Positions 3,401-37,754 of a stretch of DNA of 39,024 bases are shown here, in pieces. Within the stretch, counting starts at the first letter, position 1, and each line of letters begins with the position of its first letter. The stretch lies in IMG/VR virus record IMGVR_UViG_3300029858_000025. One strand, written 5' to 3'. The notes under the pieces are model-generated. The model searched no databases. It saw only the letters and a list, made by a program, of their open reading frames with translations, and had not been told where the DNA came from. The position numbers and the translations under genes are program-made. The DNA is from a virus.

Positions 3401-4030
3401 ATGAAATTAGGAGAACTACCATTCGGAAGCAACATCAAAATCCCCGAGCGCCGCGAGGATGGAACCTACGAGCTGGCTGACTACACCCTCGGTTGCCTCA
3501 ATAATTTTGACGTAGGCACCGCAGGGCTTGCCCGCGAGGAGGTACACAGCCTGTGCCGGTTCGGCGACAGCACGGAGTACGCCGGATCAGACCTGGACAA
3601 ACGCATGACGGAAATATACAACAGCTACCCCGACGAGCTTAAAGAACTGATTATCCCAAGCACGATCCCGCTGTATAACGGCAGCGGCGCTGAGGATATA
3701 ACACGGAAAGTATTTGCCCCCACGTTGACCATGGTAGGCTGCGGCGACAACCACGAAGCAGAAGAAGGCTTAACATGGCCTATATTCACGGGAAGAAATA
3801 GCCGCAAAAAGACCTTTAACGGCTCGGCAGCCAACTGGTGGCTTTCCTCGCAGAACTCCTCTGTCAGCGCGTGGTACGTCTACACGGACGGCTCCGCCTA
3901 CTACAACTTCCCGTCGCTCTCGTATGGTGTTGTCCCCGCTTTTGTAATCCCTCAATCGGTACAGATTGACGACATACCGGATAATGACGGCAGCTACAGA
4001 TTGACGGAGATGGAAAGCTATTGCTCGTAA
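3401..4030 (+). CDS. DUF6273-like protein, paralogue B (209 aa)
   Basis: Same length as 1714-2343. 111 nt are identical (3431-3541 = 1744-1854). The C-terminal WWLSS..GVVPAF segment is diverged. Confidence 0.75.
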   Translation: MKLGELPFGSNIKIPERREDGTYELADYTLGCLNNFDVGTAGLAREEVHSLCRFGDSTEYAGSDLDKRMTEIYNSYPDELKELIIPSTIPLYNGSGAEDITRKVFAPTLTMVGCGDNHEAEEGLTWPIFTGRNSRKKTFNGSAANWWLSSQNSSVSAWYVYTDGSAYYNFPSLSYGVVPAFVIPQSVQIDDIPDNDGSYRLTEMESYCS

Positions 4031-23435: not shown

Positions 23436-26400
23436 ATGGCAAAGACTCAAGCAGAAGTAAGGGCGGCAAAGGACGCAAAATTAGGCATAAACAGAAATAT
23501 CCAAACGACAAAAAACACAACGAAATATAACTCTGCACCGAGCAACATCAAGGAACAGCGCGACCGTAAAGACGAGGCACTTGGCATTACCCGGCGCGAG
23601 GGCAGCACCTGGAATACCGGCAAAACCTATACAAAACCTACAGCGCAGTCCCTGCTCGACCAGTATAATGCCAATGCAAAGAAGCGTATTGAAGAAGCCA
23701 ATGCGGCCACACAGAAGGCAAAAAAGGAATATGACGATTATATTGCCAAGGAAGGCCGCATATACCAGAAGAACTACGGTGCGCCATCCGACAAGGCCAA
23801 CGAGCTGCAAAACAAGCTTAATCAGGCCCGTCTCGCCCAACGGGACGCAGAGAACGAGGCGACTATAACACGCCTTGCCCAGACATCTACACTGTACAAG
23901 GACAATAAGAACAAGAAGTCTAAGGTGGATATTGGCAGAACGACGGAGCTTTCCACAGGCATAAGGGCAAAAGAAGGTAATCTCACATGGGATACTGATA
24001 CCTATAAAGCCATGACCGACGAAGAGGTATCCGTCTATAACCGCCTCGCCAAGAACGGCAAGGAAAAGGAAGCAGAAGCCTTTCTGAAAGCGATAACCCC
24101 TACTCTGAACGCAAGGGTAACGCAGAACCGCCTTGAATCGGCACAGAAAACGGCGCAGGACGGCGTAATGGGCGGTGTGGGTGCATCTATCGCATCGTCC
24201 CTGCTAAAGCCTGTCACGGCCTTACAGGGCGGGATAAAGACTGTATGGGATTTTGCCACAGGCAAACCCATAGACACCAACGCCCCCGAATATTATGCCT
24301 CCAACCTCGCCAATACCTTGCGCAGTTCCGTAGCCGAAAAGATCGAGAACGGTGTGTACGAATCCACAAAGGGCGACTACACATACGACAGAACCGGTAC
24401 CCGGCGCATGACTACCGAGGGCGAGGCAAAGAACAACGGCAAGATTGCTTCATTCCTCTATCAAACCGGCATGAGCATGGCGGATATGCTGACCATGACT
24501 CCCTTCGGGCCTGTCGGCATGCAGGTAATGATGTCCTCCAACGCCGGCGTAGACACCATGATAGACGCGAAGAACAACGGCGCGACAGATGATCAGGCCA
24601 TGGCGCTTGGCATTGTATCCGGCGCAGCGGAGGCACTCTTTGAAAAGTTCTCCATAGAAAACCTGTTTCACGGCGGCGTATCTAAAAGTACTATCCTCGC
24701 GGCTCTCAAACAGGGCGGCATAGAAGCGTCCGAGGAAATGGCTACCGAGATAACTAATATCCTTGCCAATGAGGCCGTTATGGGTAACCAGTCTGACTTC
24801 AAGAAGGCCGTGGCTGAGTATAAAGAAATGGGCCTCGACGATAAGGACGCTAAGACAAAGGCGCTTGAGGAAAAGCTGCTCCAGGTGCTTGAAGCGGGCG
24901 CAGGCGGATTCCTGAGCGGCTTTGGCATGGGCGCGGCGGCGGATGTGATGAATACACAGTCCGCAGGGGCAGCCCTCATAAACGACTATGCCAACACTAT
25001 AGCAGAGGGCATGGATATAAACACATACCTCGAACAGGGTATGAGCGAGACCGAAGCAAATAGGGCAAGGCTGGCAGACGCAAAAAAACAGGCTATTCAG
25101 GAACTGTCGGCGGAACTTCAGGCAGAAGGCGCAGAACTTGAAAAAGGGACCGTTGCAAACAGACTATCCAATAAAGCATACACGAGCGAAAGCGACATAG
25201 GCCGGCAGTTCCTTGCCAATACCGAGGGAATGAGGCTTTCCAGCGGGAAAAGGGCTGATACTGATAACGATCTTACCAATGTTACTCCGGCGACCCGCGA
25301 GACGGCCAAGAGCCTTGATATGCTCGACAAGAGCAATATTGCGCGATACATCAACGAGATAACCGCGGCTCTGGACAGAAGCGCTGCGACTGGCAAGAAG
25401 ATACTTATCGGAAAGCCGTCCGGCATTCTTGCGGAGCAGATGAATTCCGATAACGTCTTACAGATGGATCAGTCTGTTGCGAGAAAGGTCGCTTTTGCTG
25501 ACAAAAAGGACGGCGGCAAACATAACCTTGGACGCGGTGTACTGGATGAGCTTCCATATCAACTTGCCGACCCTATGATAATAACGGGCAACACCACTGA
25601 CCATATTTCTAAAGGGGATACCAACAGCGTTGTTGTGTGGACGGACTGGCAGACCGAAAACGGCGATTCCGTCATAGTCCCCATTAGGATAGACGTAGAT
25701 GGCGCTATAGAACCATACAACAGCGTAAATTCCGTGTTTGACGCTTATAATCCTGCTTACGTTGCAGACCTGTTGAGAGATGAGAACATAAGGTACACGC
25801 GAAATAATAAAAGCGTCGAAGAGCTTCTTTCCAACAGGCGACAAGTGCCTGCCGCGACTCGCTCGGTCGACGCTTCCGACACCGAGGGGCTTCTTTCCAA
25901 CGGGCGAGAAGTGCCCGCCGCGACTCGCACCTCTGATGTCAATAACACCGTATCACAGGAAAGTGTTCGCGTCAAGGAGTACCTTGCGAATTTACGCAAG
26001 CCCACCGCACAGGAAACGTTAGCAGCTATTGCAGACGACCCCACGAAGGCGGAGGAACAGCTTAGCTTATCCGAAAAGGAACAAAACTTTGCCAAAAATC
26101 TCAGCCAGGCCGCACAGAACCTCAACATGGTCAACGCCGAGACCAAGGCTTTAGGGCGCGAATACTATACGCATTCAGAGGAAATGCCCTCCTTGCAGGA
26201 CATTCAAAAGAAAAACATAGAGGACTTTACCAGTGAGGATTTCAGCGTGCTGGCAAAGAATCTGCTCGGCAGCGGCAAGCAACGCCTTTATACCAAAGAA
26301 CCTTCCCGCGTATTCGATACGGTAGCCGGCAATAATAAGGCCCTGCGCAATACGCTGTATAACCTGTTCGAAAAGCCTTTTAACGAGGCGGGCGGCAATT

Positions 26401-29400
26401 ATGGCAAATCCCTTACTTCCTCAGTAGAATCCTATAAGGAGATCATGCGGAAGTATGACATAAAGCCTAAGAGCAAAGAAGATATAGCTGCCCAGCGTTA
26501 CGGAGAAGGGCAGTATCAGGGGCCGGACGGTGAAATGATGGAATATACCCTCGCAGACCTTCAGCGGGATTGTCCTGACACATGGGAGAACGTTAAGGGC
26601 TTCGCCGAGGCCAATAGACGGGTGTACGAAGATTACCTTAACCGCATAAATTCCATGATGGAGACCATCTACCCTAACATACTTGAGAATGCCGAGGAAG
26701 AATATCAAACTGCGGTATCCCGGCGCGACGTGGCGCAATCCAAGGTTGACGCCATGACCAGAGCCATAACCGAAAAACAGAACCGCATACAGCGGCTGCA
26801 GGACACCCGCAACAATAAACAACGGACCGACACGAAGGCTTTCGCCAAGATCGAGGGCAGTATAGCAGCAGAACAGGCGAAAGTAGACAGCATGAAAACC
26901 GAGCTGGTACAGCTGGAAAAGAAACTGCGCGTAGCGGAAATGAATGCGCAGGCTCAGCGGGCAGCGATAGACAGCGGAGCCATATATGAAGGCAAAAGGA
27001 TAATCCCCCGGAAGGACTATTTCCACCACGCGCAGGAAATGCTGAGCGATTACAGCGTGCTCGACTTCCTCAGGCCCAAAAACGTGACCGAGGATGTATC
27101 CCCCGCGCTGGCTGGCGTATCCGACCAGACAAAACCCAAATCCCGCTGGTGGGGAGCAATGTTCCACCGGGGGCGGGGGGCATACTTTGAGAGCGCCTCG
27201 AACGCCATGGCGAGTTATATCGGCATGGCGGAATACAAACTCGCGTATGACCCGCTTACCAACTATTATCGCAAACTGGAAACGACGATACGCGGCAGCG
27301 CAGATACCATCAACGCAAAGAACGCCTCAGGCTTTATCGAATGGGTTAAGGACTGGACGGACGGCATGAGCGGCAAAAGCGACCACGTTATAGACCGCGG
27401 TGTACAGAAGATACTTTCCCGCCAGACCTTGAACAGCCTGAATAATCTCAACAAGCGGGTACGTGCCAATAAGGTAATGGGCAATATCCGTACCATGATT
27501 GTGCAGGCATCAAATCTGCCTAACGCAATGAGCTATGTGACCAGCCCCAAAGCGTGGGCGCAAGGCATACAGATGCTTGCGGATTATCATCACAATCCTG
27601 ATTCCGAGATAGCCAAAGCAAGAGGACAATCTCAATTTATGGCCCAGCGCTACGGCAGCAACGCAATGGAGATTCTGGAAAGCGACGGGCTGAGCGCCAA
27701 GAAGCTCGCCGGCAAGGGCATGGAACTGCTTCAACACTGGGGTGATGAGCTTACATGGTTCTCTGCTTTTGCGCAGTATAACGAGAACCCACAGGCGGCC
27801 ATGTCCGGCATGAAGCGCACCTATGACAACGCCATAGACTATGCGGACGACATAACCCGCCGAAGCGTGGCAGGCCGAGGCGTAGGCGAGGGTGCACTGG
27901 TTAATAATTCAAAGGTGGTCAATCTGATCGCCCCGTTTCAGACCGAAATACTCAACCAATGGAATACATTTTTTGAGCACGTGAAGGATCTGAAGGCGAG
28001 CCCGCAGGCGCGAGCACGTGCCGCTGCCGGTCTCGCGATGTACGAGGTTACGGCCTTTGCATTCAACACGTTAGCACAGGCAGTGCTCGGTGACAAAGTC
28101 GTGGGCTTAGATTTTATAGGCGCTCTGGTAGATACCATAACGAACGCCATAAATGACGATGACGAGGACGAAGAAAAGGACGCCCTTGATTATGCCAAGG
28201 AACTGGGGCAGGCTTCTCTCGGAACTGTAGTGGACGCTGCTCCGTTTATAAACATAATCACCAGTTTCATGGGCGACGAAACCAGTAAAAATTTATTCGG
28301 CGAACATTCGCCTACCCGTTACGGCACCGGCAACATAGGCATACGGGCTGCGGCTGATGCCATGATGTGGGGCAAGGATACCGTTGAAACTCTTATCGAC
28401 ATGGCAGGCGGTAAAGCTACGGCCAAAGACCTGGACTGGGAGGGCGGCCTTGAAACCGCCGGCAATTTCGTAACGCCGTGGGGCGGCACACAGCTCGCGA
28501 GGACTGTCAAGGGCCTTGATACCTTCTTCAGGGGCGGCAAATACGACAAGAAGGGCAATCTGCAATACGCCGTGGCGAAAACCCCGTTCAACTTCCTTCG
28601 CGCCGCTACTCTCGGCCGCAGCATGCTGCCGGAGCAACGGGAGTGGGTAGCCAAGGGATTCCCCACGCTTACCCCGGAGCAGACCAAAGCGTATGGCGAA
28701 TTTAAAAAGGCGGGCGGCAACATAACCGCGTTTACGGACTTCAAGGCCAAGTATGATGAGCTCAAAAACAGCATCGGAGCGGACAACAGAGAGATAAGCA
28801 AGCTCGCCGACGAGATAGAAGCGGCCAACCCCATGCTGTCAGAGGCTCAGGCTAAAGAGCGGGCGCAGAACCAGCTCGGCAAGAAATACCGCAACGCCGA
28901 TAACGAATACCTTACCCTTGTTGCCGACAGCGACATGACGGACGAGCAGAAGCTTGCCGCCATGATGGCAATAGGAATGTCCGATGATGACATAAACAAG
29001 GTCAAGGGGCTTGTGAAAAACGGCGTTACCGTTGGCGAATACTTGAAGTACCAGAACCTTTACAGTTCTCGCGGGTCTACAAAAACCGAGGACAAAAACG
29101 CGCTCGTATCCGCGCTCATGGCTGATAAGACGCTCTCCGAGAATGAGAAGACCATGCTTGCCAACAGGATAATTGATGGCGATTGGGTGGTGGACTTCAG
29201 CAGCCAGGCGGCAAACGACATACTTACCCAGCACGGCAAGAGCAGTTATAACAAGTATCAGAAGGCCAAGACGGAAGCCGGGATATCCGCTGAAACGTAT
29301 CTCAGCTACGCAAATAAGAGCGATAACTTCATAAGCGACTACGACCAGTACGGCACGAGCATAAGCTACAGCAAAAAGGCTAAAGTAGTCGATTACCTCG

Positions 29401-29555
29401 AAAAAATCGATGCAAGCGAGGAACAGAAAGAATATATGTTCCATGAACTGTTCGGCTATACTTCAAGCTATCAGGCCCGCTTTAAGAAGCTTAAAGAAAT
29501 CGACGGCGTCTGGTGCTACGAGCACAACGGCGAATGGATAAGACCTACTTACTAA
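23436..29555 (+). CDS. Giant (2039 aa) virion-associated polyvalent/ejection or tape-measure-like protein
   Basis: Single uninterrupted ORF with coiled-coil stretches and glycine-zipper segments. Segment ~25390-25800 resembles polyvalent-protein nuclease-like modules. Confidence 0.8.
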   Translation: MAKTQAEVRAAKDAKLGINRNIQTTKNTTKYNSAPSNIKEQRDRKDEALGITRREGSTWNTGKTYTKPTAQSLLDQYNANAKKRIEEANAATQKAKKEYDDYIAKEGRIYQKNYGAPSDKANELQNKLNQARLAQRDAENEATITRLAQTSTLYKDNKNKKSKVDIGRTTELSTGIRAKEGNLTWDTDTYKAMTDEEVSVYNRLAKNGKEKEAEAFLKAITPTLNARVTQNRLESAQKTAQDGVMGGVGASIASSLLKPVTALQGGIKTVWDFATGKPIDTNAPEYYASNLANTLRSSVAEKIENGVYESTKGDYTYDRTGTRRMTTEGEAKNNGKIASFLYQTGMSMADMLTMTPFGPVGMQVMMSSNAGVDTMIDAKNNGATDDQAMALGIVSGAAEALFEKFSIENLFHGGVSKSTILAALKQGGIEASEEMATEITNILANEAVMGNQSDFKKAVAEYKEMGLDDKDAKTKALEEKLLQVLEAGAGGFLSGFGMGAAADVMNTQSAGAALINDYANTIAEGMDINTYLEQGMSETEANRARLADAKKQAIQELSAELQAEGAELEKGTVANRLSNKAYTSESDIGRQFLANTEGMRLSSGKRADTDNDLTNVTPATRETAKSLDMLDKSNIARYINEITAALDRSAATGKKILIGKPSGILAEQMNSDNVLQMDQSVARKVAFADKKDGGKHNLGRGVLDELPYQLADPMIITGNTTDHISKGDTNSVVVWTDWQTENGDSVIVPIRIDVDGAIEPYNSVNSVFDAYNPAYVADLLRDENIRYTRNNKSVEELLSNRRQVPAATRSVDASDTEGLLSNGREVPAATRTSDVNNTVSQESVRVKEYLANLRKPTAQETLAAIADDPTKAEEQLSLSEKEQNFAKNLSQAAQNLNMVNAETKALGREYYTHSEEMPSLQDIQKKNIEDFTSEDFSVLAKNLLGSGKQRLYTKEPSRVFDTVAGNNKALRNTLYNLFEKPFNEAGGNYGKSLTSSVESYKEIMRKYDIKPKSKEDIAAQRYGEGQYQGPDGEMMEYTLADLQRDCPDTWENVKGFAEANRRVYEDYLNRINSMMETIYPNILENAEEEYQTAVSRRDVAQSKVDAMTRAITEKQNRIQRLQDTRNNKQRTDTKAFAKIEGSIAAEQAKVDSMKTELVQLEKKLRVAEMNAQAQRAAIDSGAIYEGKRIIPRKDYFHHAQEMLSDYSVLDFLRPKNVTEDVSPALAGVSDQTKPKSRWWGAMFHRGRGAYFESASNAMASYIGMAEYKLAYDPLTNYYRKLETTIRGSADTINAKNASGFIEWVKDWTDGMSGKSDHVIDRGVQKILSRQTLNSLNNLNKRVRANKVMGNIRTMIVQASNLPNAMSYVTSPKAWAQGIQMLADYHHNPDSEIAKARGQSQFMAQRYGSNAMEILESDGLSAKKLAGKGMELLQHWGDELTWFSAFAQYNENPQAAMSGMKRTYDNAIDYADDITRRSVAGRGVGEGALVNNSKVVNLIAPFQTEILNQWNTFFEHVKDLKASPQARARAAAGLAMYEVTAFAFNTLAQAVLGDKVVGLDFIGALVDTITNAINDDDEDEEKDALDYAKELGQASLGTVVDAAPFINIITSFMGDETSKNLFGEHSPTRYGTGNIGIRAAADAMMWGKDTVETLIDMAGGKATAKDLDWEGGLETAGNFVTPWGGTQLARTVKGLDTFFRGGKYDKKGNLQYAVAKTPFNFLRAATLGRSMLPEQREWVAKGFPTLTPEQTKAYGEFKKAGGNITAFTDFKAKYDELKNSIGADNREISKLADEIEAANPMLSEAQAKERAQNQLGKKYRNADNEYLTLVADSDMTDEQKLAAMMAIGMSDDDINKVKGLVKNGVTVGEYLKYQNLYSSRGSTKTEDKNALVSALMADKTLSENEKTMLANRIIDGDWVVDFSSQAANDILTQHGKSSYNKYQKAKTEAGISAETYLSYANKSDNFISDYDQYGTSISYSKKAKVVDYLEKIDASEEQKEYMFHELFGYTSSYQARFKKLKEIDGVWCYEHNGEWIRPTY
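25823..25928 (+). repeat. Two 40-nt repeat units (37/40 identical) spaced 66 nt apart inside the giant gene
   Basis: gcttctttccaac(a/g)ggcga(c/g)aagtgcc(t/c)gccgcgactcgc at 25823-25862 and 25889-25928, encoding LLSNRRQVPAATRS / LLSNGREVPAATRT. Confidence 0.9.
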
Positions 29556-29566
29556 AGGAGGGACGC

Positions 29567-30598
29567 ATGGCAATACAGGACAACAAAATAACCACCTGGA
29601 CAAACCCCATCGTCAACGAAGCGGATCGCCCCCAGCGGTCCGCTGCTGACATGAAGGCGATATTCGACAGCAACAGTAACCAGCTCAAGAAAGCACTGAA
29701 CGGCCTCATAGACGCGCTCACTCAATCCGGCGGCGGCGACATAGGGGCAAGCGTTGAGGGCATGGCCGGAAACAACGTGCAGGCCCTTATCGCGGAGCTG
29801 AAGGGCTTGATAGACGCGATAGAGGAATACACGGACAGCCTTAAAACGCCCAGCGGCGCCGCCAACGTGGGCGCAAAGGTGAGCGGCATAACCGGCAACA
29901 ACATAGCCGCCGTCCTCGCCGCGCTGAAAACCCTCTGCGACAGGGTAGATACCACCGGCGACGGAGACCTGTTTTTAAAGAACGACGGCACTTATGGCCT
30001 GCCCACCGTGGGCAGCGCCGCAAACGGCCTTCCCATAGGCGGCAAGGCGGGGCAGTTCCTGAAGAAGGCCAGCTCCGTCAATTTCGCGGGATACTGGGGC
30101 GGCATTGTAGACGAGGCCCTTTCCGGCCTGCTGAAAGCCTCCAATGGGGAGTTGGCGGCGGCAGAGGCGGGCGTTGACTACCAGACCCCCCTTGTTTCCG
30201 GGACGGACTATCAGCCCCCCATAGCTTCCGGCACTTACGCCACCCCGGACGATGTTTCCGGGGCCGTGTCGGGGCATAACAGCGCAAGCAACGCACATTC
30301 CGCGCTGTTCAACAAAAAGCAGACCGCGCCCGCCCTCGCTTCCTCCCTCCCCGCCAGCGGCGCGGCGCTGACGGCAAACACCATATATAACGTATCCTCT
30401 CCTGTGGGTACATATGTGTTTACCCCGCCCGCTTCCGGCTGGGCGCACGGCACATTTAGCACGGCGGCCTCGGTTGCGGTGTCGTTTGTGAGCGGGGCGA
30501 ACTATTTAGGCGAGGCTCCGGCAATAGAGGCAAGCAAAACCTATGAATTTGACGTATACAACGGTGTGTGGGCAGTACAGGAGGTTGTGAGTGCATGA
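29567..30598 (+). CDS. Tail fibre protein (343 aa)
   Basis: ATG 29567 follows AAGGAGGGA. Internal repeats GASVEGMAGNNVQALIAELKGLID / GAKVSGITGNNIAAVLAALKTLCD are typical of fibres. Confidence 0.7.
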   Translation: MAIQDNKITTWTNPIVNEADRPQRSAADMKAIFDSNSNQLKKALNGLIDALTQSGGGDIGASVEGMAGNNVQALIAELKGLIDAIEEYTDSLKTPSGAANVGAKVSGITGNNIAAVLAALKTLCDRVDTTGDGDLFLKNDGTYGLPTVGSAANGLPIGGKAGQFLKKASSVNFAGYWGGIVDEALSGLLKASNGELAAAEAGVDYQTPLVSGTDYQPPIASGTYATPDDVSGAVSGHNSASNAHSALFNKKQTAPALASSLPASGAALTANTIYNVSSPVGTYVFTPPASGWAHGTFSTAASVAVSFVSGANYLGEAPAIEASKTYEFDVYNGVWAVQEVVSA

Positions 30599-30957
30599 TA
30601 GCTATGCTACGAAGGAGGCTGATGGGCGAAAAAAAGCCAAAGGAATACACATTGACTGTGAAGTGGAATTCCGATCCTGTTAACTGGTTCAGAGTGATAT
30701 GCGATGGTATACAATATGGTTATAAAGACGGAAATAAAACAATCAAAATCACAGAAGGATCAACGTTAGCTATATCTGCTAATCCGGTGAGTCACATACA
30801 TTATATTTACTTTAATAATCAGCTTGTTAAGATGTATGATGCAGATGATGTCAAATCCTACACTTGGTATTTCCCTTATGCTATTACGGGAGATATTACC
30901 TTCACCTTTAGGACGGAATCCAGCACCAAGTACAGCTACATAAATTGGAAAATGTGA
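30595..30957 (+). CDS. Fibre-associated small protein A (120 aa), low-GC cassette
   Basis: RBS AGGAGG. N-terminus MIAMLRRRLMGEKKPKEYTLTV is shared with the next gene. Confidence 0.6.
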   Translation: MIAMLRRRLMGEKKPKEYTLTVKWNSDPVNWFRVICDGIQYGYKDGNKTIKITEGSTLAISANPVSHIHYIYFNNQLVKMYDADDVKSYTWYFPYAITGDITFTFRTESSTKYSYINWKM

Positions 30958-31033
30958 AAGGAATAAGTGCACTATGCGTAAAATAATTCTATCGGGGGGG
31001 CAGCCTCCGTAAAATAAAAAGCGCCTATGCGCT

Positions 31034-31414
31034 ATGATACCCTTACAGTTTGCCTTACGGCGCAGAATGATGTCAAAGAGCAAACCTAAAACATTTACAG
31101 TTACGTTGACTGGGCAACATACTACCAGTATACGCGCCAATAATGCAATAAGATATAATGGCGCAGTTTATACCGGAGGAAGTTTTATTGTAGGCGCAAA
31201 TGAGGTCATAGGTGTTGATTATAGTACCTCTGAAAGAGGTTGGCCTACTGGCGGTGGCCTCGTAACAGTAGATGGTGCTGTTAAGGTTCCTGCTGGGGGA
31301 ATAAAACACGGAACATACAATTATACTGTAACGTCAGATATTACCATTCGTGGTGAATATCATTTAAGTTATGACGATTTCGACTTTGGTGCGAACTATA
31401 TTACTACTCTATAA
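31034..31414 (+). CDS. Fibre-associated small protein B (126 aa), low-GC cassette
   Basis: N-terminus MIPLQFALRRRMMSKSKPKTFTVTL parallels 30595-30957. No clear RBS. Confidence 0.5.
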   Translation: MIPLQFALRRRMMSKSKPKTFTVTLTGQHTTSIRANNAIRYNGAVYTGGSFIVGANEVIGVDYSTSERGWPTGGGLVTVDGAVKVPAGGIKHGTYNYTVTSDITIRGEYHLSYDDFDFGANYITTL

Positions 31415-32157: not shown

Positions 32158-32158
32158 G

Positions 32159-32178
32159 GAGCCGCACGGCTCTTTTTT
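32159..32178 (+). terminator. Rho-independent terminator (gagcc-gcac-ggctc + T6)
   Basis: Stem-loop directly after the stop at 32157, followed by tttttt. Confidence 0.65.
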
Positions 32179-32219
32179 CATAATTAAAAAAACAAAAACA
32201 AAGAAAGGAAAAAATCAAA

Positions 32220-32774
32220 ATGAAGAAACTCACTTGTATCCTCGCGGCAATGCTCATGCTGTGCCTTTGCACCATAGCCTACGCTGCAGACCCCGTAACT
32301 CTGGATATAACCGCGCTGGACTACCAGACCGGCAAGGCGGTATCCAAGACCTACGTCAACAACGAGCTTTTCCTACTCGAGGTGGACCTGGGCATACCCC
32401 GGTTTTTCGACCTGACCGATATGGAGCTTATAATCGAACTGGACGGCGTAAAGCTGGACACAAACGACCTGAGATTGGAGGCTGGAACATATTACCTGAG
32501 CGGCATAGTTACCGACCAGCCCGCCGCTCTCCGTATAACCGTCAAGGACAAGGCCTACGAAAACGCCACCACGGCAGAAGAACTCTACAACGCCATGCAG
32601 AAAAACAGGACTGTAAGCAAGACCTACTATTTTAACACCGCGCAACCCGCCGAACAGCCCATTGCAAAAAATCCCGTGGTGATACCCAAGACCGGCGGCG
32701 CCTCCGTCCTCGCATATGCGGTATCCATAGCCCTGATAGGGTTCGGCCTTGCGGTAGCAGGTAAACGCAAATGA
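32220..32774 (+). CDS. Secreted cell-wall-anchored surface protein (sortase substrate, IPKTG motif)
   Basis: Signal peptide MKKLTCILAAMLMLCLCTIAYA. C-terminal sorting signal is IPKTGG (32682-32699) + hydrophobic ASVLAYAVSIALIGFGLAVAG + KRK. Confidence 0.8.
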   Translation: MKKLTCILAAMLMLCLCTIAYAADPVTLDITALDYQTGKAVSKTYVNNELFLLEVDLGIPRFFDLTDMELIIELDGVKLDTNDLRLEAGTYYLSGIVTDQPAALRITVKDKAYENATTAEELYNAMQKNRTVSKTYYFNTAQPAEQPIAKNPVVIPKTGGASVLAYAVSIALIGFGLAVAGKRK

Positions 32775-33544
32775 ACAGAATAGACGGTTTTATCGCCTAC
32801 CTGGAATCCCACGTAGGCGATATGTATGTATGGGGAGCGCAGGGACAGCAGGTTGACAGCATGAGCGACCCCTACGCATGGATAGAACGGCGCGAAACCA
32901 GCGACACGAATTACAACCGCGCCGTGAAATTCATGGAGAAGGCCGAAAAACGGCCTCTCTATGCGTTCGACTGTTCCGGCCTCATCGTACACTACATCAG
33001 CGACATAAAGCACTGGATGAAGGGCGACACCAACGCCCAGGGGCTTTACCGTATGTGCGGCGAAAACAGGGGCTACGCCGGGAAAACCCCCATATGGCCG
33101 GGCGACCTCGTATTCAAGTACAGCGAAAGCAGCAAGAAAATGGTACATGTCGGCGTATACGTCGGCGGCGGCTACACCATAGAGGCGAAAGGCCGCGACG
33201 ATGGCGTATGCAAGCGCAAGCTGTCCGATGGCAACTGGACGCACTGGGGGCGGCTTGCCCTGCTCCAGCAGGAGGAAGAAAAGGAGGAGGAAAAGGCGCG
33301 GAAGATCATAACCCTGACGAGCCCCATGATGCGGGGAGACGACATCAAAGCCTTGCAAACCGCACTCAACGCTCTGGGCTATGACGCGGGGGACGCGGAC
33401 GGCATAGCGGGCAAAAACACCATTGCGGCCATACGGCGATTTGCGGGCGACTATGCAAACGCCGGGGAAACGGAACTGCCGGACGTGCTACAGGTATCCG
33501 TGTCCGTTGACGGCAAAATATACGTAGGCACAGCCAAAAGATAA
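32771..33544 (+). CDS. Endolysin: NlpC/P60 peptidase + PG_binding_1 domain
   Basis: Catalytic FDCSGLI and HVGVYVG. C-terminal GDDIKALQTALNALGYDAGDADGIAGKNTIAAIRRF. Confidence 0.85.
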   Translation: MNRIDGFIAYLESHVGDMYVWGAQGQQVDSMSDPYAWIERRETSDTNYNRAVKFMEKAEKRPLYAFDCSGLIVHYISDIKHWMKGDTNAQGLYRMCGENRGYAGKTPIWPGDLVFKYSESSKKMVHVGVYVGGGYTIEAKGRDDGVCKRKLSDGNWTHWGRLALLQQEEEKEEEKARKIITLTSPMMRGDDIKALQTALNALGYDAGDADGIAGKNTIAAIRRFAGDYANAGETELPDVLQVSVSVDGKIYVGTAKR

Positions 33545-33558
33545 GGAGGAAAAACAAA

Positions 33559-33996
33559 ATGAACATATCTGAATGGATCAAAACTATTGCCGCCGCTGTA
33601 GGCGGCGCACTTGCGTGGCTCTTCGGCGCCTGGGATCCCCTGATAATGGTACTGGTGGCGGTGATGGTGTTGGACTACGTCACCGGCGTAGCCGACGCAG
33701 CAGTGACCGGGACCCTCAGCAGCGCAGTAGGATTCAAGGGATTGCTGAAGAAAATCTTTATACTAATACTGGTGGCACTGGCGGCCCTACTTGACAGGCT
33801 TGTGCCCGCCACCAATGGGGCGGTGCGCAGCGCGGTGTGCATGTTCTACATAGCCAACGAGGGCCTATCCATACTGGAGAACGCCGGCACGCTTGGCCTG
33901 CCGCTGCCCGAGGCGCTCAGAGGGGCCCTCCAGAAGCTCCACAACAAAGGCAACGCAATAGAAGATACCGAACCTACCGACAAAACAGCACAATAA
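33559..33996 (+). CDS. Holin (phage_holin_4_1-like)
   Basis: Multiple TM segments. Contains VLDYVTGVADA...GFKGLLKKIFILILV, typical of the family. Confidence 0.8.
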   Translation: MNISEWIKTIAAAVGGALAWLFGAWDPLIMVLVAVMVLDYVTGVADAAVTGTLSSAVGFKGLLKKIFILILVALAALLDRLVPATNGAVRSAVCMFYIANEGLSILENAGTLGLPLPEALRGALQKLHNKGNAIEDTEPTDKTAQ

Positions 33997-34038
33997 AACA
34001 GTACAATCTCATCCCACGTTCGGGATTCCCTTTCAATT

Positions 34039-34066
34039 GCCCCCCTTAATTGGGGGGCGTATTTTT
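34039..34066 (+). terminator. Rho-independent terminator (gcccccc-ttaatt-ggggggc + T-rich tail)
   Basis: Perfect 7-bp GC stem read directly after the holin gene. Confidence 0.8.
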
Positions 34067-34108: not shown

Positions 34109-34342
34109 ATGGATAAAGCATTGCTTAATTCCCGTTCCCGCACGGAATGGGAAGCACTCATACACGAATGGATACATAACGAAAAAGACCGCTGGCTGAT
34201 AACCCGCCGCCTTTTAGACGGGGTGTCATACGACGCTTTGACGGGCGAGTACCAGCTTAAATTTGAAATACCCCTTGAATATGACCAGATACGAAGGCGG
34301 TGCAAGGCTGCCGAAAAACAACTGAAAACGCACTGTAAATAG
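34109..34342 (+). CDS. Small putative DNA-binding protein (77 aa), stand-alone unit between two terminators
   Basis: ORF track. RRLLDGVSYDALTGEY resembles a region-4-like HTH. Weak RBS. Confidence 0.45.
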   Translation: MDKALLNSRSRTEWEALIHEWIHNEKDRWLITRRLLDGVSYDALTGEYQLKFEIPLEYDQIRRRCKAAEKQLKTHCK

Positions 34343-34351
34343 CCGATAAAT

Positions 34352-34386
34352 AGCCGATGGGAGCAATCCTGTCGGCTCTTTTTTTA
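34352..34386 (+). terminator. Rho-independent terminator (agccga...tcggct + T7)
   Basis: Stem 34352-34357 / 34372-34377 followed by cttttttt. It contains the ATG 34357 that the ORF track used as a start. Confidence 0.65.
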
Positions 34387-34419
34387 TGCCAAAATTCAGG
34401 TAGAAGGGAGCGTGAAACA

Positions 34420-34773
34420 GTGTATCCATACCAACCTTATTTTAACCAGCAAACCCAATATCAGCGAACCGAAGTAGTCAAAGTGAACGGCGAGGGCGGC
34501 GCAAAGGCGTATCAAATGCCCCCTAATAGCTCCGTTCTTCTGTTGGACGAAACGGCCCCCATAGTGTGGCTTAAAACAACGGACGGGGCGGGGTTCCCCT
34601 CTCTCTCGCCTTACAGCATAACCCCGTATAAACCCGCTCCGCCTGTCGATGTGAACGGCCTTGAACAGAGAATAGCCAGATTGGAGGAAATGATAAATGC
34701 CAAACCCGATACTACAAATGCTAAGCGGAGGAAGTCCGAGGAAACTCAACCCACAAATGATAGCGCAGGCTAA
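34420..34773 (+). CDS. Hypothetical protein (117 aa, VYPYQPYFNQQTQYQ...)
   Basis: GTG 34420 follows GAAGGGAG. The start was moved downstream of the terminator. Confidence 0.5.
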   Translation: MYPYQPYFNQQTQYQRTEVVKVNGEGGAKAYQMPPNSSVLLLDETAPIVWLKTTDGAGFPSLSPYSITPYKPAPPVDVNGLEQRIARLEEMINAKPDTTNAKRRKSEETQPTNDSAG

Positions 34774-34909
34774 ACAGATGATGTCCGTTCCTGGGCAAAT
34801 ACAGAAGATAAAGCAGATGATAGGCAACGGCGACCCTAAACAGATGTTTTATGCGGCCTGCAAGCAATACGGGATAGACCCCGAGGATATTCTTTCTGAA
34901 TTAAGGTAG
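34697..34909 (+). CDS. Hypothetical protein (70 aa, MPNPILQML...)
   Basis: ATG follows TGGAGGAAATGATAA. Overlaps the previous gene by 77 nt in another frame. Confidence 0.55.
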   Translation: MPNPILQMLSGGSPRKLNPQMIAQAKQMMSVPGQIQKIKQMIGNGDPKQMFYAACKQYGIDPEDILSELR

Positions 34910-34966
34910 ACCATTACCCGAAGCGCGCGCGGGATTGGAATATAAATCGAAAGGAACTTTAGAACT

Positions 34967-35548
34967 ATGGATAATATGCCCTCTCTCGCGGATATAGCCG
35001 CGGTAACTGATGGCAAGACTGACGGCTTCAACGGAGGCTTCTGGATATTCGCCCTTATCATACTTTTTGCTATGATGGGCGGCGGCTTTGGCGGCTGGAA
35101 CCGCCAGGGCGAATTTGGACAGTATGCCACCGCTGCGTCTCAGCAGGAAATTCTCTTCGGTCAGCACTTCGGCCAGATCAATGACCGCTTGACTAACATC
35201 GGCAATGGTATATGTGATTCCACCTTCGCGCTGAACAACGCTATCACCACCGAAGGCCGAAACCTGTCCAGCCAGCTCGCAAACTGCTGCTGTGAACAGA
35301 GGCTCGGTATAGCTAACCTTTCAGCGCAGATGAACCAGAACACCTGCGACATAACCACCGCTATCCACGCCGAGGCCGAGGCCACCCGCTCCCTGATACA
35401 GGCGAACGAAATGCAGGCTCTCAGGGACAAAGTGTCCAGCCTTGAGATGGATAACCGCATGTACGGAGTAGTCCGCTATCCCAACGGTTACACCTACAAC
35501 GCGGGGAACTCCCCCTTCTGTGGTAATAATTGCGGCTGCTGCTGCTAA
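34967..35548 (+). CDS. Membrane-anchored coiled-coil protein with Cys-rich C-terminus (193 aa, 10 Cys, ends CGNNCGCCC)
   Basis: Gly-rich TM segment GGFWIFALIILFAMMGGGFGGW. Contains NCCCEQ and ends FCGNNCGCCC. Confidence 0.65.
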   Translation: MDNMPSLADIAAVTDGKTDGFNGGFWIFALIILFAMMGGGFGGWNRQGEFGQYATAASQQEILFGQHFGQINDRLTNIGNGICDSTFALNNAITTEGRNLSSQLANCCCEQRLGIANLSAQMNQNTCDITTAIHAEAEATRSLIQANEMQALRDKVSSLEMDNRMYGVVRYPNGYTYNAGNSPFCGNNCGCCC

Positions 35549-35616
35549 TTCCGGCTATGCCGTGATATATCGGGGCGGCGTATGCTGCCCCTTGATTTTT
35601 GAAAGGAGCATAAAAA

Positions 35617-35997
35617 ATGGCTTGTAAAAATGTATGCAAACTCTGCCCCAACCTTATAATCTCCCAGGCCGTTACCTTCACGGCGGGAACCGGGCTGATA
35701 ATCAACCTCCCGGCAGGCAACTATAACGATAATCAGAAATACTGCATCGTGGTAGCTCAGTCTATCCCGGCGGCTACCACTATAACCGCGCCCGTGTTTG
35801 TCACCATAGGCGCCGGCACGGAGCAGTACCCGCTGATAAATAGCTGCTGCGCCCAGGTCACAGCTTGCGCCATACGCACCCGCACCAGGTATGCTACCAT
35901 CGTCAAGACCAACGCCACGGGCGGCAGTTTTAAACTGCTCAATAAAACTTGCACACCCACTAACAGCCTTGCAAGCATTAACGGAGGCGCAGAGTAA
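35617..35997 (+). CDS. Cys-rich small protein (126 aa, 8 Cys, N-terminal CKNVCKLC)
   Basis: RBS AAAGGAG. No signal peptide. Confidence 0.7.
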   Translation: MACKNVCKLCPNLIISQAVTFTAGTGLIINLPAGNYNDNQKYCIVVAQSIPAATTITAPVFVTIGAGTEQYPLINSCCAQVTACAIRTRTRYATIVKTNATGGSFKLLNKTCTPTNSLASINGGAE

Positions 35998-36428
35998 TGA
36001 GCTTTAAGGAGATCATAAACCTGATATCCGAAAGACACGGCGACATGACGGAAGTAACCGATGCGCTCTCTGATATGATGCACACGGTAAAGGACCGTCT
36101 GCCGGAAGTGTACAAGGAAACAATGTATTGCCTCGAAGAAATAGCATATCGGATAACTCCCGAAGAGGCGCGGCAGATAGTCAAGGGTATGCGCCCATAC
36201 GGTCAAAAATGGGACTATGATACCATCAAGGCGTTTCTGGCGACGAAGGGCATAACGGCGGTATGCAAATACTATCTGTGCATGAATATGTACTACAACG
36301 ACAGTCACGATACCGCCGAAATGGTAGGCAGGGGAGAAGACCCGGAGTTTTATTTCAGCCTTGCAAAAGATTTCATTAACGACATAGACGGTAAGGATTT
36401 CAAGGTTGAAAAATATTTTACTGCGTAA
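35997..36428 (+). CDS. Hypothetical acidic protein (143 aa)
   Basis: TAATG start/stop overlap with the upstream gene. Confidence 0.65.
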   Translation: MSFKEIINLISERHGDMTEVTDALSDMMHTVKDRLPEVYKETMYCLEEIAYRITPEEARQIVKGMRPYGQKWDYDTIKAFLATKGITAVCKYYLCMNMYYNDSHDTAEMVGRGEDPEFYFSLAKDFINDIDGKDFKVEKYFTA

Positions 36429-36641: not shown

Positions 36642-37754
36642 TCATTTTGTGGTTTCGCTCTGGCAACTTTCTGGCAACCTTTTTTTGAAAGCGTCCATAA
36701 CCGCGCCCGCGCTTGCGTCCTCTTTTTCCTTTGAAAGGTGTGAATAAATTTCAAGCGTTACCTTTACGTTGGCGTGGCCAAGGAATTTCTGCGCGGAAAG
36801 CACGTCAACGCCGGCATTATAGAGTATGGAGGCGTAATTGTGCCGGAAGTAGTGCGGCGTGAGGATAGAGGCGCCGTCCTCTCTCGTTTCTATGTCGGGC
36901 CCCAACTCTGCCATGCGCTCCATCAGCGAACGCCATAGCCTATTTGAAGAGGAATTGCGATAGTATGTGCCATCGGGGGCGGGGAATACAAACGCCTGCG
37001 GGAATCCCCGCACGAGCATTTCCGCCAGCTCGTCCGGCAGGGGTATATCCCGTATGCTCTCCTTCGTCTTGGGCGGAGTTATCATGCCCTTCCTTAAATT
37101 GACCTGCTGCCGGACGTGTATGACCTTCTTCCTGAAATCTACACATTCCCATTGCAGGCCGAGGGCTTCGCCGAGCCTCATTCCGGTATAGTATAGCAAT
37201 GCCACCAGCAGGCCGTTTTCCTCCTGCATCAGCTTCTTTGCCGCTTCTTCCTCCGCTTCCGTCAGCGCCCGGCGGCTTGACTTTTCTTTCGTGGGCTTGA
37301 CCAGCCCCACGGTCACGTCCCGCTGGATTATCCCCTCGGAGTATGCCCGCTTAAAGACGGATTCTAACACATGATGTACATTTTCGATTATGGTTACGCA
37401 CGTATCGCCCTTGGAGTTAAGCAGCTCCTGCAAATCCATAGTGGATATTGCGGTGAGTCGCTTGTCCCCCAGAACAGGCAATATGTGCTTGTTGAGTGCC
37501 GTCTTATATCCGCTCTGTGCCGATTCCTTTATGTTCGGCTTTTTGTAGACATTATACCACTGTATGGCGTATGGGCCGAAAAGCGCGTCCTTCTGTGCGG
37601 TGCGCCCGGTGATGAACTCTTGTTTGACCGCCTCCTTCGCGGCCTCCAGCTCCTTCTTTGTGCGCCCGGATACATATTTTATCACGCTGCCGCCGTTCAT
37701 ATCCTTACCGACGGTTACTTTAGCCCTATACCTCCCGTCACTTTGCCTTGCCAT
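36642..37754 (-). CDS. int: Tyrosine integrase
   Basis: 370 aa. C-terminal catalytic region TPHYFRHNYASILYNAGVDVLSAQKFLGHANVKVTLEIYSHL, with upstream GMRLGEAL (Arg). Confidence 0.9.
   Translation of the reverse strand: MARQSDGRYRAKVTVGKDMNGGSVIKYVSGRTKKELEAAKEAVKQEFITGRTAQKDALFGPYAIQWYNVYKKPNIKESAQSGYKTALNKHILPVLGDKRLTAISTMDLQELLNSKGDTCVTIIENVHHVLESVFKRAYSEGIIQRDVTVGLVKPTKEKSSRRALTEAEEEAAKKLMQEENGLLVALLYYTGMRLGEALGLQWECVDFRKKVIHVRQQVNLRKGMITPPKTKESIRDIPLPDELAEMLVRGFPQAFVFPAPDGTYYRNSSSNRLWRSLMERMAELGPDIETREDGASILTPHYFRHNYASILYNAGVDVLSAQKFLGHANVKVTLEIYSHLSKEKEDASAGAVMDAFKKRLPESCQSETTK
36660..36683 (+). repeat. Two tandem TGGCAACYTT repeats (right arm), inside the integrase 3' end
   Basis: Exact 22-nt copy of 36442-36463. 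Confidence 0.5.

Follow-up and report, generated by a model that had tools for sequence, protein, structure and literature searches.

The usual description of how phages lyse Gram-positive bacteria involves a holin and an endolysin, and accessory lysis factors are known mainly for diderms (the spanins) and for mycobacteria (LysB and Gp1). We know of no lysis protein that is attached to the wall by sortase. Here we describe a gene for a very probable sortase substrate that stands directly in front of the endolysin gene of a temperate phage, at positions 32220..32774 of a stretch of virus DNA of 39,024 nucleotides (IMG/VR record IMGVR_UViG_3300029858_000025; the whole stretch is hereafter called the window). 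The gene behaves as the first cistron of a lysis operon, consisting of a hairpin and leader, the anchored protein, the endolysin, the holin and a terminator, and not as a moron, that is, a cargo gene with its own promoter and terminator. We found no report in the literature on LPXTG or sortase proteins from phage lysis cassettes or on the protein family concerned; prophage LPXTG proteins are known as cargo, and the conservation of a sortase substrate inside lysis cassettes is new as far as the literature was searched.

The closest described systems each share part of this arrangement. Small genes beside or overlapping the endolysin gene are known from the cassettes encoding Ms6 Gp1, the spanins Rz/Rz1, the u-spanin and XhlA of Bacillus prophages, and Rz1 and the u-spanin are envelope-tethered like the protein described here. 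The cassette of mycobacteriophage Ms6 places gp1 immediately ahead of lysA and, like that of the window, carries a terminator in the leader of its lysis operon (PMC6116114). Gp1 is, however, cytoplasmic and binds the N terminus of LysA, whereas the phage protein studied here has a signal peptide and its endolysin partners are mutually unrelated, a combination that does not fit an endolysin chaperone of the Gp1 type. Spanins need an outer membrane and a lipobox, whereas our protein has no conserved cysteine and its hosts are Clostridia; only its place in the cassette and its topology, a signal peptide plus a C-terminal transmembrane segment, resemble those of a u-spanin. Searches in Pfam, PHROG, the PDB and Foldseek revealed no sequence similarity or specific fold similarity to known lysis proteins.

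Among sortase substrates, the protein is best compared with CD2831 of Clostridioides difficile. The sortase SrtB of this species cleaves the motif PPKTG between T and G and links the product to meso-diaminopimelic acid (mDAP) (PMC4591827), and CD2831, a PPKTG protein anchored by SrtB (PMC4591827), shares with the phage protein the signal peptide, the xPKTG motif, the hydrophobic segment, the basic tail and a host among the Clostridia. In contrast to CD2831, a large adhesin that is encoded on the chromosome and has collagen-binding domains, the phage protein is a single-domain product of 184 amino acids (aa) from a lysis operon, and no homology between the two was detected. SasX and SesI of phiSPbeta-like staphylococcal prophages are likewise sortase substrates from temperate phages, but SasX is lysogen-expressed cargo acting in colonization, whereas the gene in the window is fixed before the endolysin gene and shows no sequence similarity. 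Substrates of the IsdC type, which are buried in the wall, are also single beta-sandwiches with a short linker and an anchor inside the wall; they differ in being chromosomal and in their function, and the phage protein has no NEAT homology (weak Foldseek matches, E ≥ 0.06). Finally, T5 Llp, phi80/N15 Cor, TP-J34 Ltp and the lipoproteins of PDB entries 4lba and 2l7q are small secreted envelope-tethered domains from mobile elements, but they are lipoproteins, have no coupling to an endolysin and are made early or in the lysogen.

Results

The protein and its sorting signal

The lysis unit of the window comprises the following features, all on the plus strand:

About 32158..32178, plus strand: terminator-like hairpin GGAGCC/GCAC/GGCTC followed by T6 (RNA fold −13.8 kcal/mol, z = −2.6)
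32179..32219, plus strand: A-rich leader with the Shine–Dalgarno sequence AGAAAGGAA (about 32202-32210), 9 nt before the ATG
32220..32774, plus strand: open reading frame (ORF) of the sortase-anchored protein, 184 aa, read from the sequence
32220..32285, plus strand: signal peptide, aa 1-22, with MKK, a hydrophobic core and AYA; predicted signal peptidase I cleavage between A22 and A23
32286..32633, plus strand: ectodomain, aa 23-138, modelled as a seven-strand immunoglobulin (Ig)-like beta-sandwich with two short helices (TAEELYNAMQ)
32634..32681, plus strand: short stalk, aa 139-154 (NTAQPAEQPIAKNPVV), 16 aa, modelled as disordered
32682..32696, plus strand: sortase recognition pentapeptide IPKTG, aa 155-159, followed by G160
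32700..32774, plus strand: hydrophobic segment, aa 161-181 (21 residues), KRK tail and TGA stop, read from the sequence
32771..33544, plus strand: endolysin, NlpC/P60 with PG_binding_1 and no signal peptide (Pfam, PHROG)
33559..33996, plus strand: holin, Phage_holin_4_1 / TIGR01593 (Pfam 8.2e-42, NCBIfam 7e-30)
34038..34059, plus strand: strong terminator-like hairpin closing the three-gene lysis unit (8 pairs, 7 of them G–C, and a T-run; top-ranked in the terminator scan)

The initial annotation had described a 184-aa frame with a signal peptide and a sorting signal, and we found each of these elements at its place. The N terminus reads MKK-LTCILAAMLMLCLCTI-AYA/ADP, and the alanines at the −3 and −1 positions of the predicted cleavage site (A20 and A22) are invariant in 26/26 homologues, in an alignment that reaches down to 40% identity. 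Inspection and conservation both point to a Sec signal peptide, and residues 2-20 form a helix in the full-length AlphaFold2 (AF2) model. The cysteines in its hydrophobic core vary among the 26 homologues, which indicates a signal for signal peptidase I with no lipobox or lipoprotein signal. Lipoprotein or spanin identity was ruled out on the same ground.

At the other end, the protein has both an LPXTG-class pentapeptide and a hydrophobic segment with a positively charged C-terminal tail. P156, K157, T158 and G159 are invariant in the alignment of homologues A1, and across the family the motif follows the pattern xP[KQRN]TG (IPKTG, LPKTG, PPKTG, IPQTG, IPRTG and IPNTG), which is retained down to about 30% identity. 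The exact PPKTG of the SrtB substrates is found in three family members (P0100, P0121 and P0128), and IPKTGG is the motif of the pilus protein AP1-2a of group B Streptococcus (PMC3186789). The hydrophobic segment drifts in sequence across the family, but every full-length relative retains the hydrophobic character and the basic end; in the full-length model, it forms a helix at residues 163-182. That the whole sorting signal is kept while the hydrophobic sequence drifts is the main argument that processing by sortase is real. A regular expression for the sorting signal was also run over the window and 157 fetched loci, on all six-frame ORFs with 90 aa or more; apart from family members, it matched a single false positive.

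The curated NCBIfam model TIGR01167 scored 14.0 bits, below its cut-off of 15.9, and the Pfam scan of the 184-aa protein revealed no anchor domain and no match to PF00746. The small shortfall in TIGR01167 is consistent with isoleucine replacing leucine at the first position of the motif. The claim of the initial annotation that the product is a sortase substrate looks genuine, as motif, hydrophobic segment and basic tail are common to the whole family, and from its sequence we consider the 184-aa protein very probably a real substrate. A variant of the C terminus was seen in the 201-aa members P0021, P0042, P0057 and L082, where the hydrophobic segment is different and a long cytoplasmic tail rich in lysine, glycine and cysteine (…ARKKGGKCGKGSKGGGC) replaces KRK.

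Coupling to the endolysin gene

The TGA stop of the gene for the anchored protein (32772-32774) overlaps the ATG of the endolysin gene (32771-32773) as ATGA at 32771-32774, and GCAGGT codons (Ala-Gly) in the hydrophobic segment double as a Shine–Dalgarno-like sequence for the endolysin. The downstream gene is a clear endolysin (Pfam NLPC_P60 6.9e-12 and PG_binding_1 4.7e-9), and PHROG endolysin families also match. This overlap, and a position suited to coexpression with the lysis genes, had been read from the window alone; the close arrangement holds far beyond it. Flanks were readable in about 100 loci, and in each of them the endolysin start lies at −4 to +24 nt relative to the end of the anchored gene, usually with a 4-nt overlap; in all these loci, the gene forms one unit with endolysin and holin genes in conserved synteny. 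Coexpression of the anchored protein with the lysis genes is accordingly a likely feature of these phages.

The adjacency is retained although the partners are exchanged. The endolysins span three catalytic classes and fall into the following types, assigned with Pfam:

Window group, L006, L010 and L142: NlpC/P60 with PG_binding_1
L082: NlpC/P60 with SH3_3, no PG_binding_1
L001-L005, L012, L013, L090-L093 and L155: Peptidase_C1-like with PG_binding_1
L009, L011, L088 and L089: Amidase_2 with SH3_3
L151-L153, the most distant subgroup: dual enzyme of 596 aa with Peptidase_C1, two PG_binding_1 and NlpC/P60, at a 4-nt overlap

The holins come from at least three families (Phage_holin_4_1, Phage_holin_Dp1 with an XhlA-like protein, or Phage_holin_1), and the carrier phages differ in their upstream neighbours and tail modules, which include the siphovirus-type Prophage_tail with diversity-generating retroelements. 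Among 67 loci with an anchored protein at least 84% identical, the downstream neighbour belonged to one single cluster and the upstream neighbour to eight unrelated ones. In a reciprocal check, the gene was present upstream in 55/55 readable relatives of the endolysin of the window, and the 97-99% relatives of two other endolysin types likewise had it upstream.

One locus, L142 (2417-3004), carries a mosaic allele. Its ectodomain is 39% identical to that of the window, its endolysin is 74% identical, and both endolysin and holin are of the window type; its sorting signal (IPKTGDISIIAYAIPLSLIGFGLFVAGKRK) recurs unchanged in other close relatives (e.g. L083). The mosaic points to recombination within the gene at the stalk. 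Covariation of the transmembrane segment with the type of holin was ruled out: an identical hydrophobic segment is found in the window, beside Phage_holin_4_1, and in L080, beside Phage_holin_Dp1.

Two further observations concern the cassettes. On one contig of a metagenome-assembled genome (MAG), JAEDIC010000005.1, two copies with the anchored protein and an Amidase_2 endolysin (L009, 52.8-65.4 kb, and L011, 89.6-98.0 kb) lie about 37 kb apart and represent either two related prophages or an assembly repeat. The 604-aa endolysin of locus L169 (1697-3511) consists of an Amidase_2/PG_binding/SH3 part and an N-terminal part with subtilisin-like motifs (DTGV, HGT and GTSAA, identified by eye).

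Borders of the lysis unit

The terminator and A-rich leader that had been noted upstream of the gene are both present, the hairpin with its T-run. A simple consensus terminator scan did not list the hairpin at 32158-32178. Hairpin and T-run nevertheless recur in loci where the anchored protein is only 42-53% identical, and the stem shows a compensatory change from A–T to G–C: both GAGCC/GGCTC and GGGCC/GGCCC occur, and GGGCC/GGCTC represents the G–T intermediate. About 18 loci have an additional 84-aa DUF6275 gene inserted after the hairpin and leader and 17 nt upstream of the anchored gene (e.g. L080, 4729-4983); in loci of the L080 type, the same hairpin precedes it. The hairpin is kept even ahead of the insert and thus marks the 5′ border of the lysis module. 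The DUF6275 gene itself represents a further small gene, likewise optional, with which the module can begin. The ribosome-binding site GAAAGGA(A) is conserved in all loci compared.

These borders bear on the proposal of the initial annotation that the gene could be expressed in the lysogen as a conversion factor. Such a moron would produce an adhesin, a receptor mask or an immune decoy on the surface of the lysogen, and several features are compatible with it: all carriers seen are temperate or integrated (prophage ends were found in L001-L005 and L151), the upstream terminator and AT-rich leader resemble moron boundaries, a CATAAT hexamer directly follows the T-run in the window, and prophage-borne LPXTG proteins such as SasX exist. 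However, a sigma-70 scan from the hairpin to the ATG found no promoter, and no −35/−10 pair is conserved across the compared loci. An own promoter was ruled out, as distant loci do not share the −10-like CATAAT hexamer, which in addition lacks a −35 element. Furthermore, in no locus is there a terminator, or room for one, between the anchored gene and the endolysin and holin genes, so that a promoter active in the lysogen would also transcribe the latter two.

The composition and distribution of the gene agree with this. With a GC content of 0.537 and a GC content at third codon positions (GC3) of 0.67, compared with 0.62-0.72 for core genes, the gene resembles the phage core and is not foreign DNA. 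It shows no presence/absence polymorphism, all 55 readable close relatives of the endolysin carrying it, and absence was seen only at a larger distance (L169). Core-like composition, the lack of room for a terminator and the lack of polymorphism together argue against a moron, as do the short stalk and the presence of a separate moron-like region with its own terminators at 34109-36428. With linkage to the downstream side among the 67 close loci, a lysogen-expressed conversion factor is not favoured, and we regard this explanation as quite improbable.

The family and its selection

The protein belongs to a narrow unnamed family whose members come from phages and prophages of gut Clostridia. 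A word-indexed search returned 98 clusters, all metagenomic and unnamed; an exhaustive hidden Markov model search of 1.84 billion representatives gave only 38 matching clusters, and a distant subgroup added more than 380 further 90% clusters. The full-length members share one architecture of signal peptide, single domain, short stalk, xP[KQRN]TG, hydrophobic segment and basic tail, and two members have an extra insert of about 110 aa. The UniProt entry A0A8S5MND2 (Myoviridae sp. ctI7W9) is 91% identical and was automatically named 'LPXTG cell wall anchor domain-containing protein'. A tblastn search of the cultured phages in INPHARED found no match to the 184-aa protein, blastn with the region matched only unannotated faecal phage contigs, outside the gene, and searches of viral contigs with alignment A2 and the family member P0121 gave no confirmed matches. 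Many human-gut viral contigs contain relatives, as do MAGs of Clostridia/Eubacteriales, among them one from an Acutalibacteraceae bacterium.

To describe selection, we used the ratio of nonsynonymous to synonymous substitution rates (dN/dS) among 60 distinct close alleles. It was 0.18 overall and 0.15 in the ectodomain, with the strongest constraint at aa 116-150, and no 15-codon sliding window exceeded 0.55. There is thus no signature of an arms race, and diversifying selection was ruled out. The stalk sequence is strongly kept among close alleles (dN/dS 0.02-0.12) and variable in distant relatives. The idea that the frame is a chance ORF or a decaying gene without function has nothing but the absence of database annotation in its favour; it is refuted by the 98 + 380 homologous clusters, the dN/dS of 0.18, the confident structure model and the conserved architecture and synteny, and its probability is practically nil.

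The same data bear on the possibility that the sorting reaction itself is the function. An abundant late substrate would compete for sortase and for lipid II or mDAP amines and lower cross-linking of the wall; in an alternative version, the C-terminal peptide released by cleavage would have an effect within the membrane, such as on the timing of the holin. No other feature of the family is conserved as deeply as the sorting signal, the strong conserved ribosome-binding site implies high expression, and sortase uses the mDAP amine that also serves the cross-links (PMC4591827). On the other hand, the ectodomain is under clear purifying selection and has many invariant residues, and the transmembrane segment varies and does not track the holin type. 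Even taken jointly, we consider the two versions very unlikely.

The ectodomain

The AF2 model of the trimmed ectodomain (alignment A4) reached a pLDDT of 91.4 and a pTM of 0.82 and represents a seven-strand Ig-like sandwich. In the full-length model, the stalk has a pLDDT below 50, and residues 140-160, comprising stalk and motif, are disordered. Sequence and profile searches with the ectodomain gave only subthreshold noise in Pfam, PHROGs and NCBIfam (including Pfam Shr-like_HID at E = 0.1), and a profile search of PDB sequences returned no match at E ≤ 10. Foldseek, run with the full-length and the trimmed pLDDT-91 models, found generic Ig-like matches only, and no PDB entry reached E < 1e-3; among compact structures, the Bacteroides conjugative-transposon lipoproteins 4lba and 2l7q, of unknown function, came closest, with a TM-score of about 0.5 and a nonsignificant E ≥ 0.02.

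A small envelope-tethered beta-sandwich from a mobile element would also suit a late exclusion factor or a shield against readsorption. The tethered domain would block a receptor or an entry step on the dying cell and its debris, and would spare progeny from wall fragments or block superinfecting phages in analogy to T5 Llp and Cor. The fold neighbours 4lba and 2l7q, although not significant, fit this proposal. Sortase-anchored proteins can serve as phage receptors and phage tails adhere to debris, as described for GamR and the gamma phage (PMC4113786). The gene furthermore lies directly after the tail-fibre module, and L142 indicates that a different ectodomain can be combined with a retained sorting signal and endolysin. 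Against this, the strict, translationally coupled place before the endolysin would be unexpected for an exclusion gene, and among close relatives the linkage is with the endolysin and not with tail genes. A 16-aa stalk combined with late synthesis would bury the domain far from surface receptors, and dN/dS ≤ 0.55 in every window gives no sign of diversifying selection. Such a shield is in our view unlikely. An exposed adhesin, which the initial annotation had also considered, is disfavoured by the same short stalk and by the dN/dS profile. The anchored protein may also decorate wall fragments.

Other regions of the carrier phages

The window represents a temperate phage with a terminase, a portal and a major head protein, an integrase (36642..37754, minus strand) and a tail-fibre-like protein (29513..30598, PHROG). 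At the place expected for the tape measure, positions 23436-29555 encode a giant, probably virion-internal protein of 2039 aa with MuF_C at residues 689-793. Between tail fibre and lysis module lie two ORFs of 129 and 126 aa (30568-30957 and 31034-31414). This stretch (30568-31414) has a GC content of 0.39-0.41 and a GC3 of 0.29-0.42, compared with about 0.65 for the phage, and looks foreign. The N termini of the two proteins are alike (…LRRRLMGEKKPKEYTLTV / …LRRRMMSKSKPKTFTVTL), and the ORFs look like recently acquired paralogues, perhaps forming a host-range cassette. Near the left end, two 209-aa paralogues have DUF6273 (1714-2343 and 3401-4030); in L001-L006, this domain adjoins the reverse transcriptase of a diversity-generating retroelement, and no reverse transcriptase was seen in the window.

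Between holin and integrase, the interval 34109-36428 contains six small ORFs, which three terminator-like hairpins (at 34038, 34352 and 35572) set apart; its products include a 193-aa protein with a cysteine-rich end (…FCGNNCGCCC) and a DUF7841 protein. This is the classical position for lysogenic-conversion cargo and is separate from the gene for the anchored protein. In other loci, an RVT_1 gene resembling that of diversity-generating retroelements and a gene for a CBM_5_12-like protein lie directly upstream of the cassette (L001-L005, 5000-7787; L006, 4160-5938; L142, 643-2356; L155, 2277-3943), and in L001-L005 a SocA_Panacea/PemK toxin–antitoxin pair is inserted ahead of the hairpin.

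Discussion

The behaviour of the gene as a first cistron follows from three observations: the invariant adjacency to the endolysin despite varied partners, the core-like composition and a dN/dS of about 0.18. The initial annotation had pointed to a paradox, a wall anchor produced shortly before the wall itself is broken down, and we consider this paradox genuine. We infer late expression, processing by sortase, burial in the wall and an accessory role in lysis; taken as a whole, the reading that the first cistron of the lysis operon encodes a late-made accessory protein of the lysis module, situated at the inner wall, has about an even chance of being correct.

According to this reading, Sec would export the precursor, the signal peptide would be removed after AYA, and the C-terminal hydrophobic segment and the KRK tail would retain the precursor in the membrane. 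Sortase of the host would then cut IPKT/G and join the threonine to lipid II, through mDAP or a cross-bridge amine, and the 115-aa Ig-like domain would in this way be incorporated in the newest, innermost peptidoglycan. With a stalk of 16 residues and late synthesis, the domain would stay in the innermost wall and not reach the surface, remaining buried at the inner face where the endolysin arrives after the holin has fired. There, the anchored protein might act on a component of the host wall and improve the efficiency or the timing of lysis or of virion release. Since the phage partners (endolysin, holin and tail) are interchangeable, the target is more likely a component of the host envelope.

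The final step is the least secure, and that the anchored protein helps lysis is a tentative proposal, to which we give somewhat less than an even chance. Several points weigh against it. The late timing is read from the gene order only. A specific protein partnership is unlikely with either endolysin or holin, as the classes of both vary, and this leaves a role in lysis without a concrete mechanism; the generic Ig-like fold of the model does not point to an activity or a partner either. In L169, an endolysin with a 60% identical amidase module belongs to a phage without the anchored-protein gene, and the gene is thus not generally required for lysis in related systems. Finally, all carriers seen are temperate, as a function related to lysogeny would also predict.

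The conserved place before the endolysin nevertheless suggests a part of the accessory lysis machinery rather than a cargo gene, and the protein could belong to a new class of lysis proteins if genetics agrees. In its most specific form, the proposal is that, besides holin and endolysin, a third class of lysis-operon protein exists in phages that infect monoderm gut Clostridia, a small sortase-installed Ig-like protein needed for efficient or timed breakdown of the wall or release of virions; this is doubtful on present evidence. Equally speculative is the view of such a class as the monoderm counterpart, in logic and not in ancestry, of spanins or LysB. Should the protein turn out to serve exclusion or conversion instead, one would still have to explain why it is obligatorily coupled to the endolysin. 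If the lysis role is true, lysis cassettes would gain a new functional class, and the phage would be exploiting a surface-display enzyme of its host during the lytic cycle. A signal peptide and an xPKTG anchor encoded directly 5′ of a lysin gene would then also provide an easy genomic marker for the lysis modules of phages of uncultured gut Clostridia.

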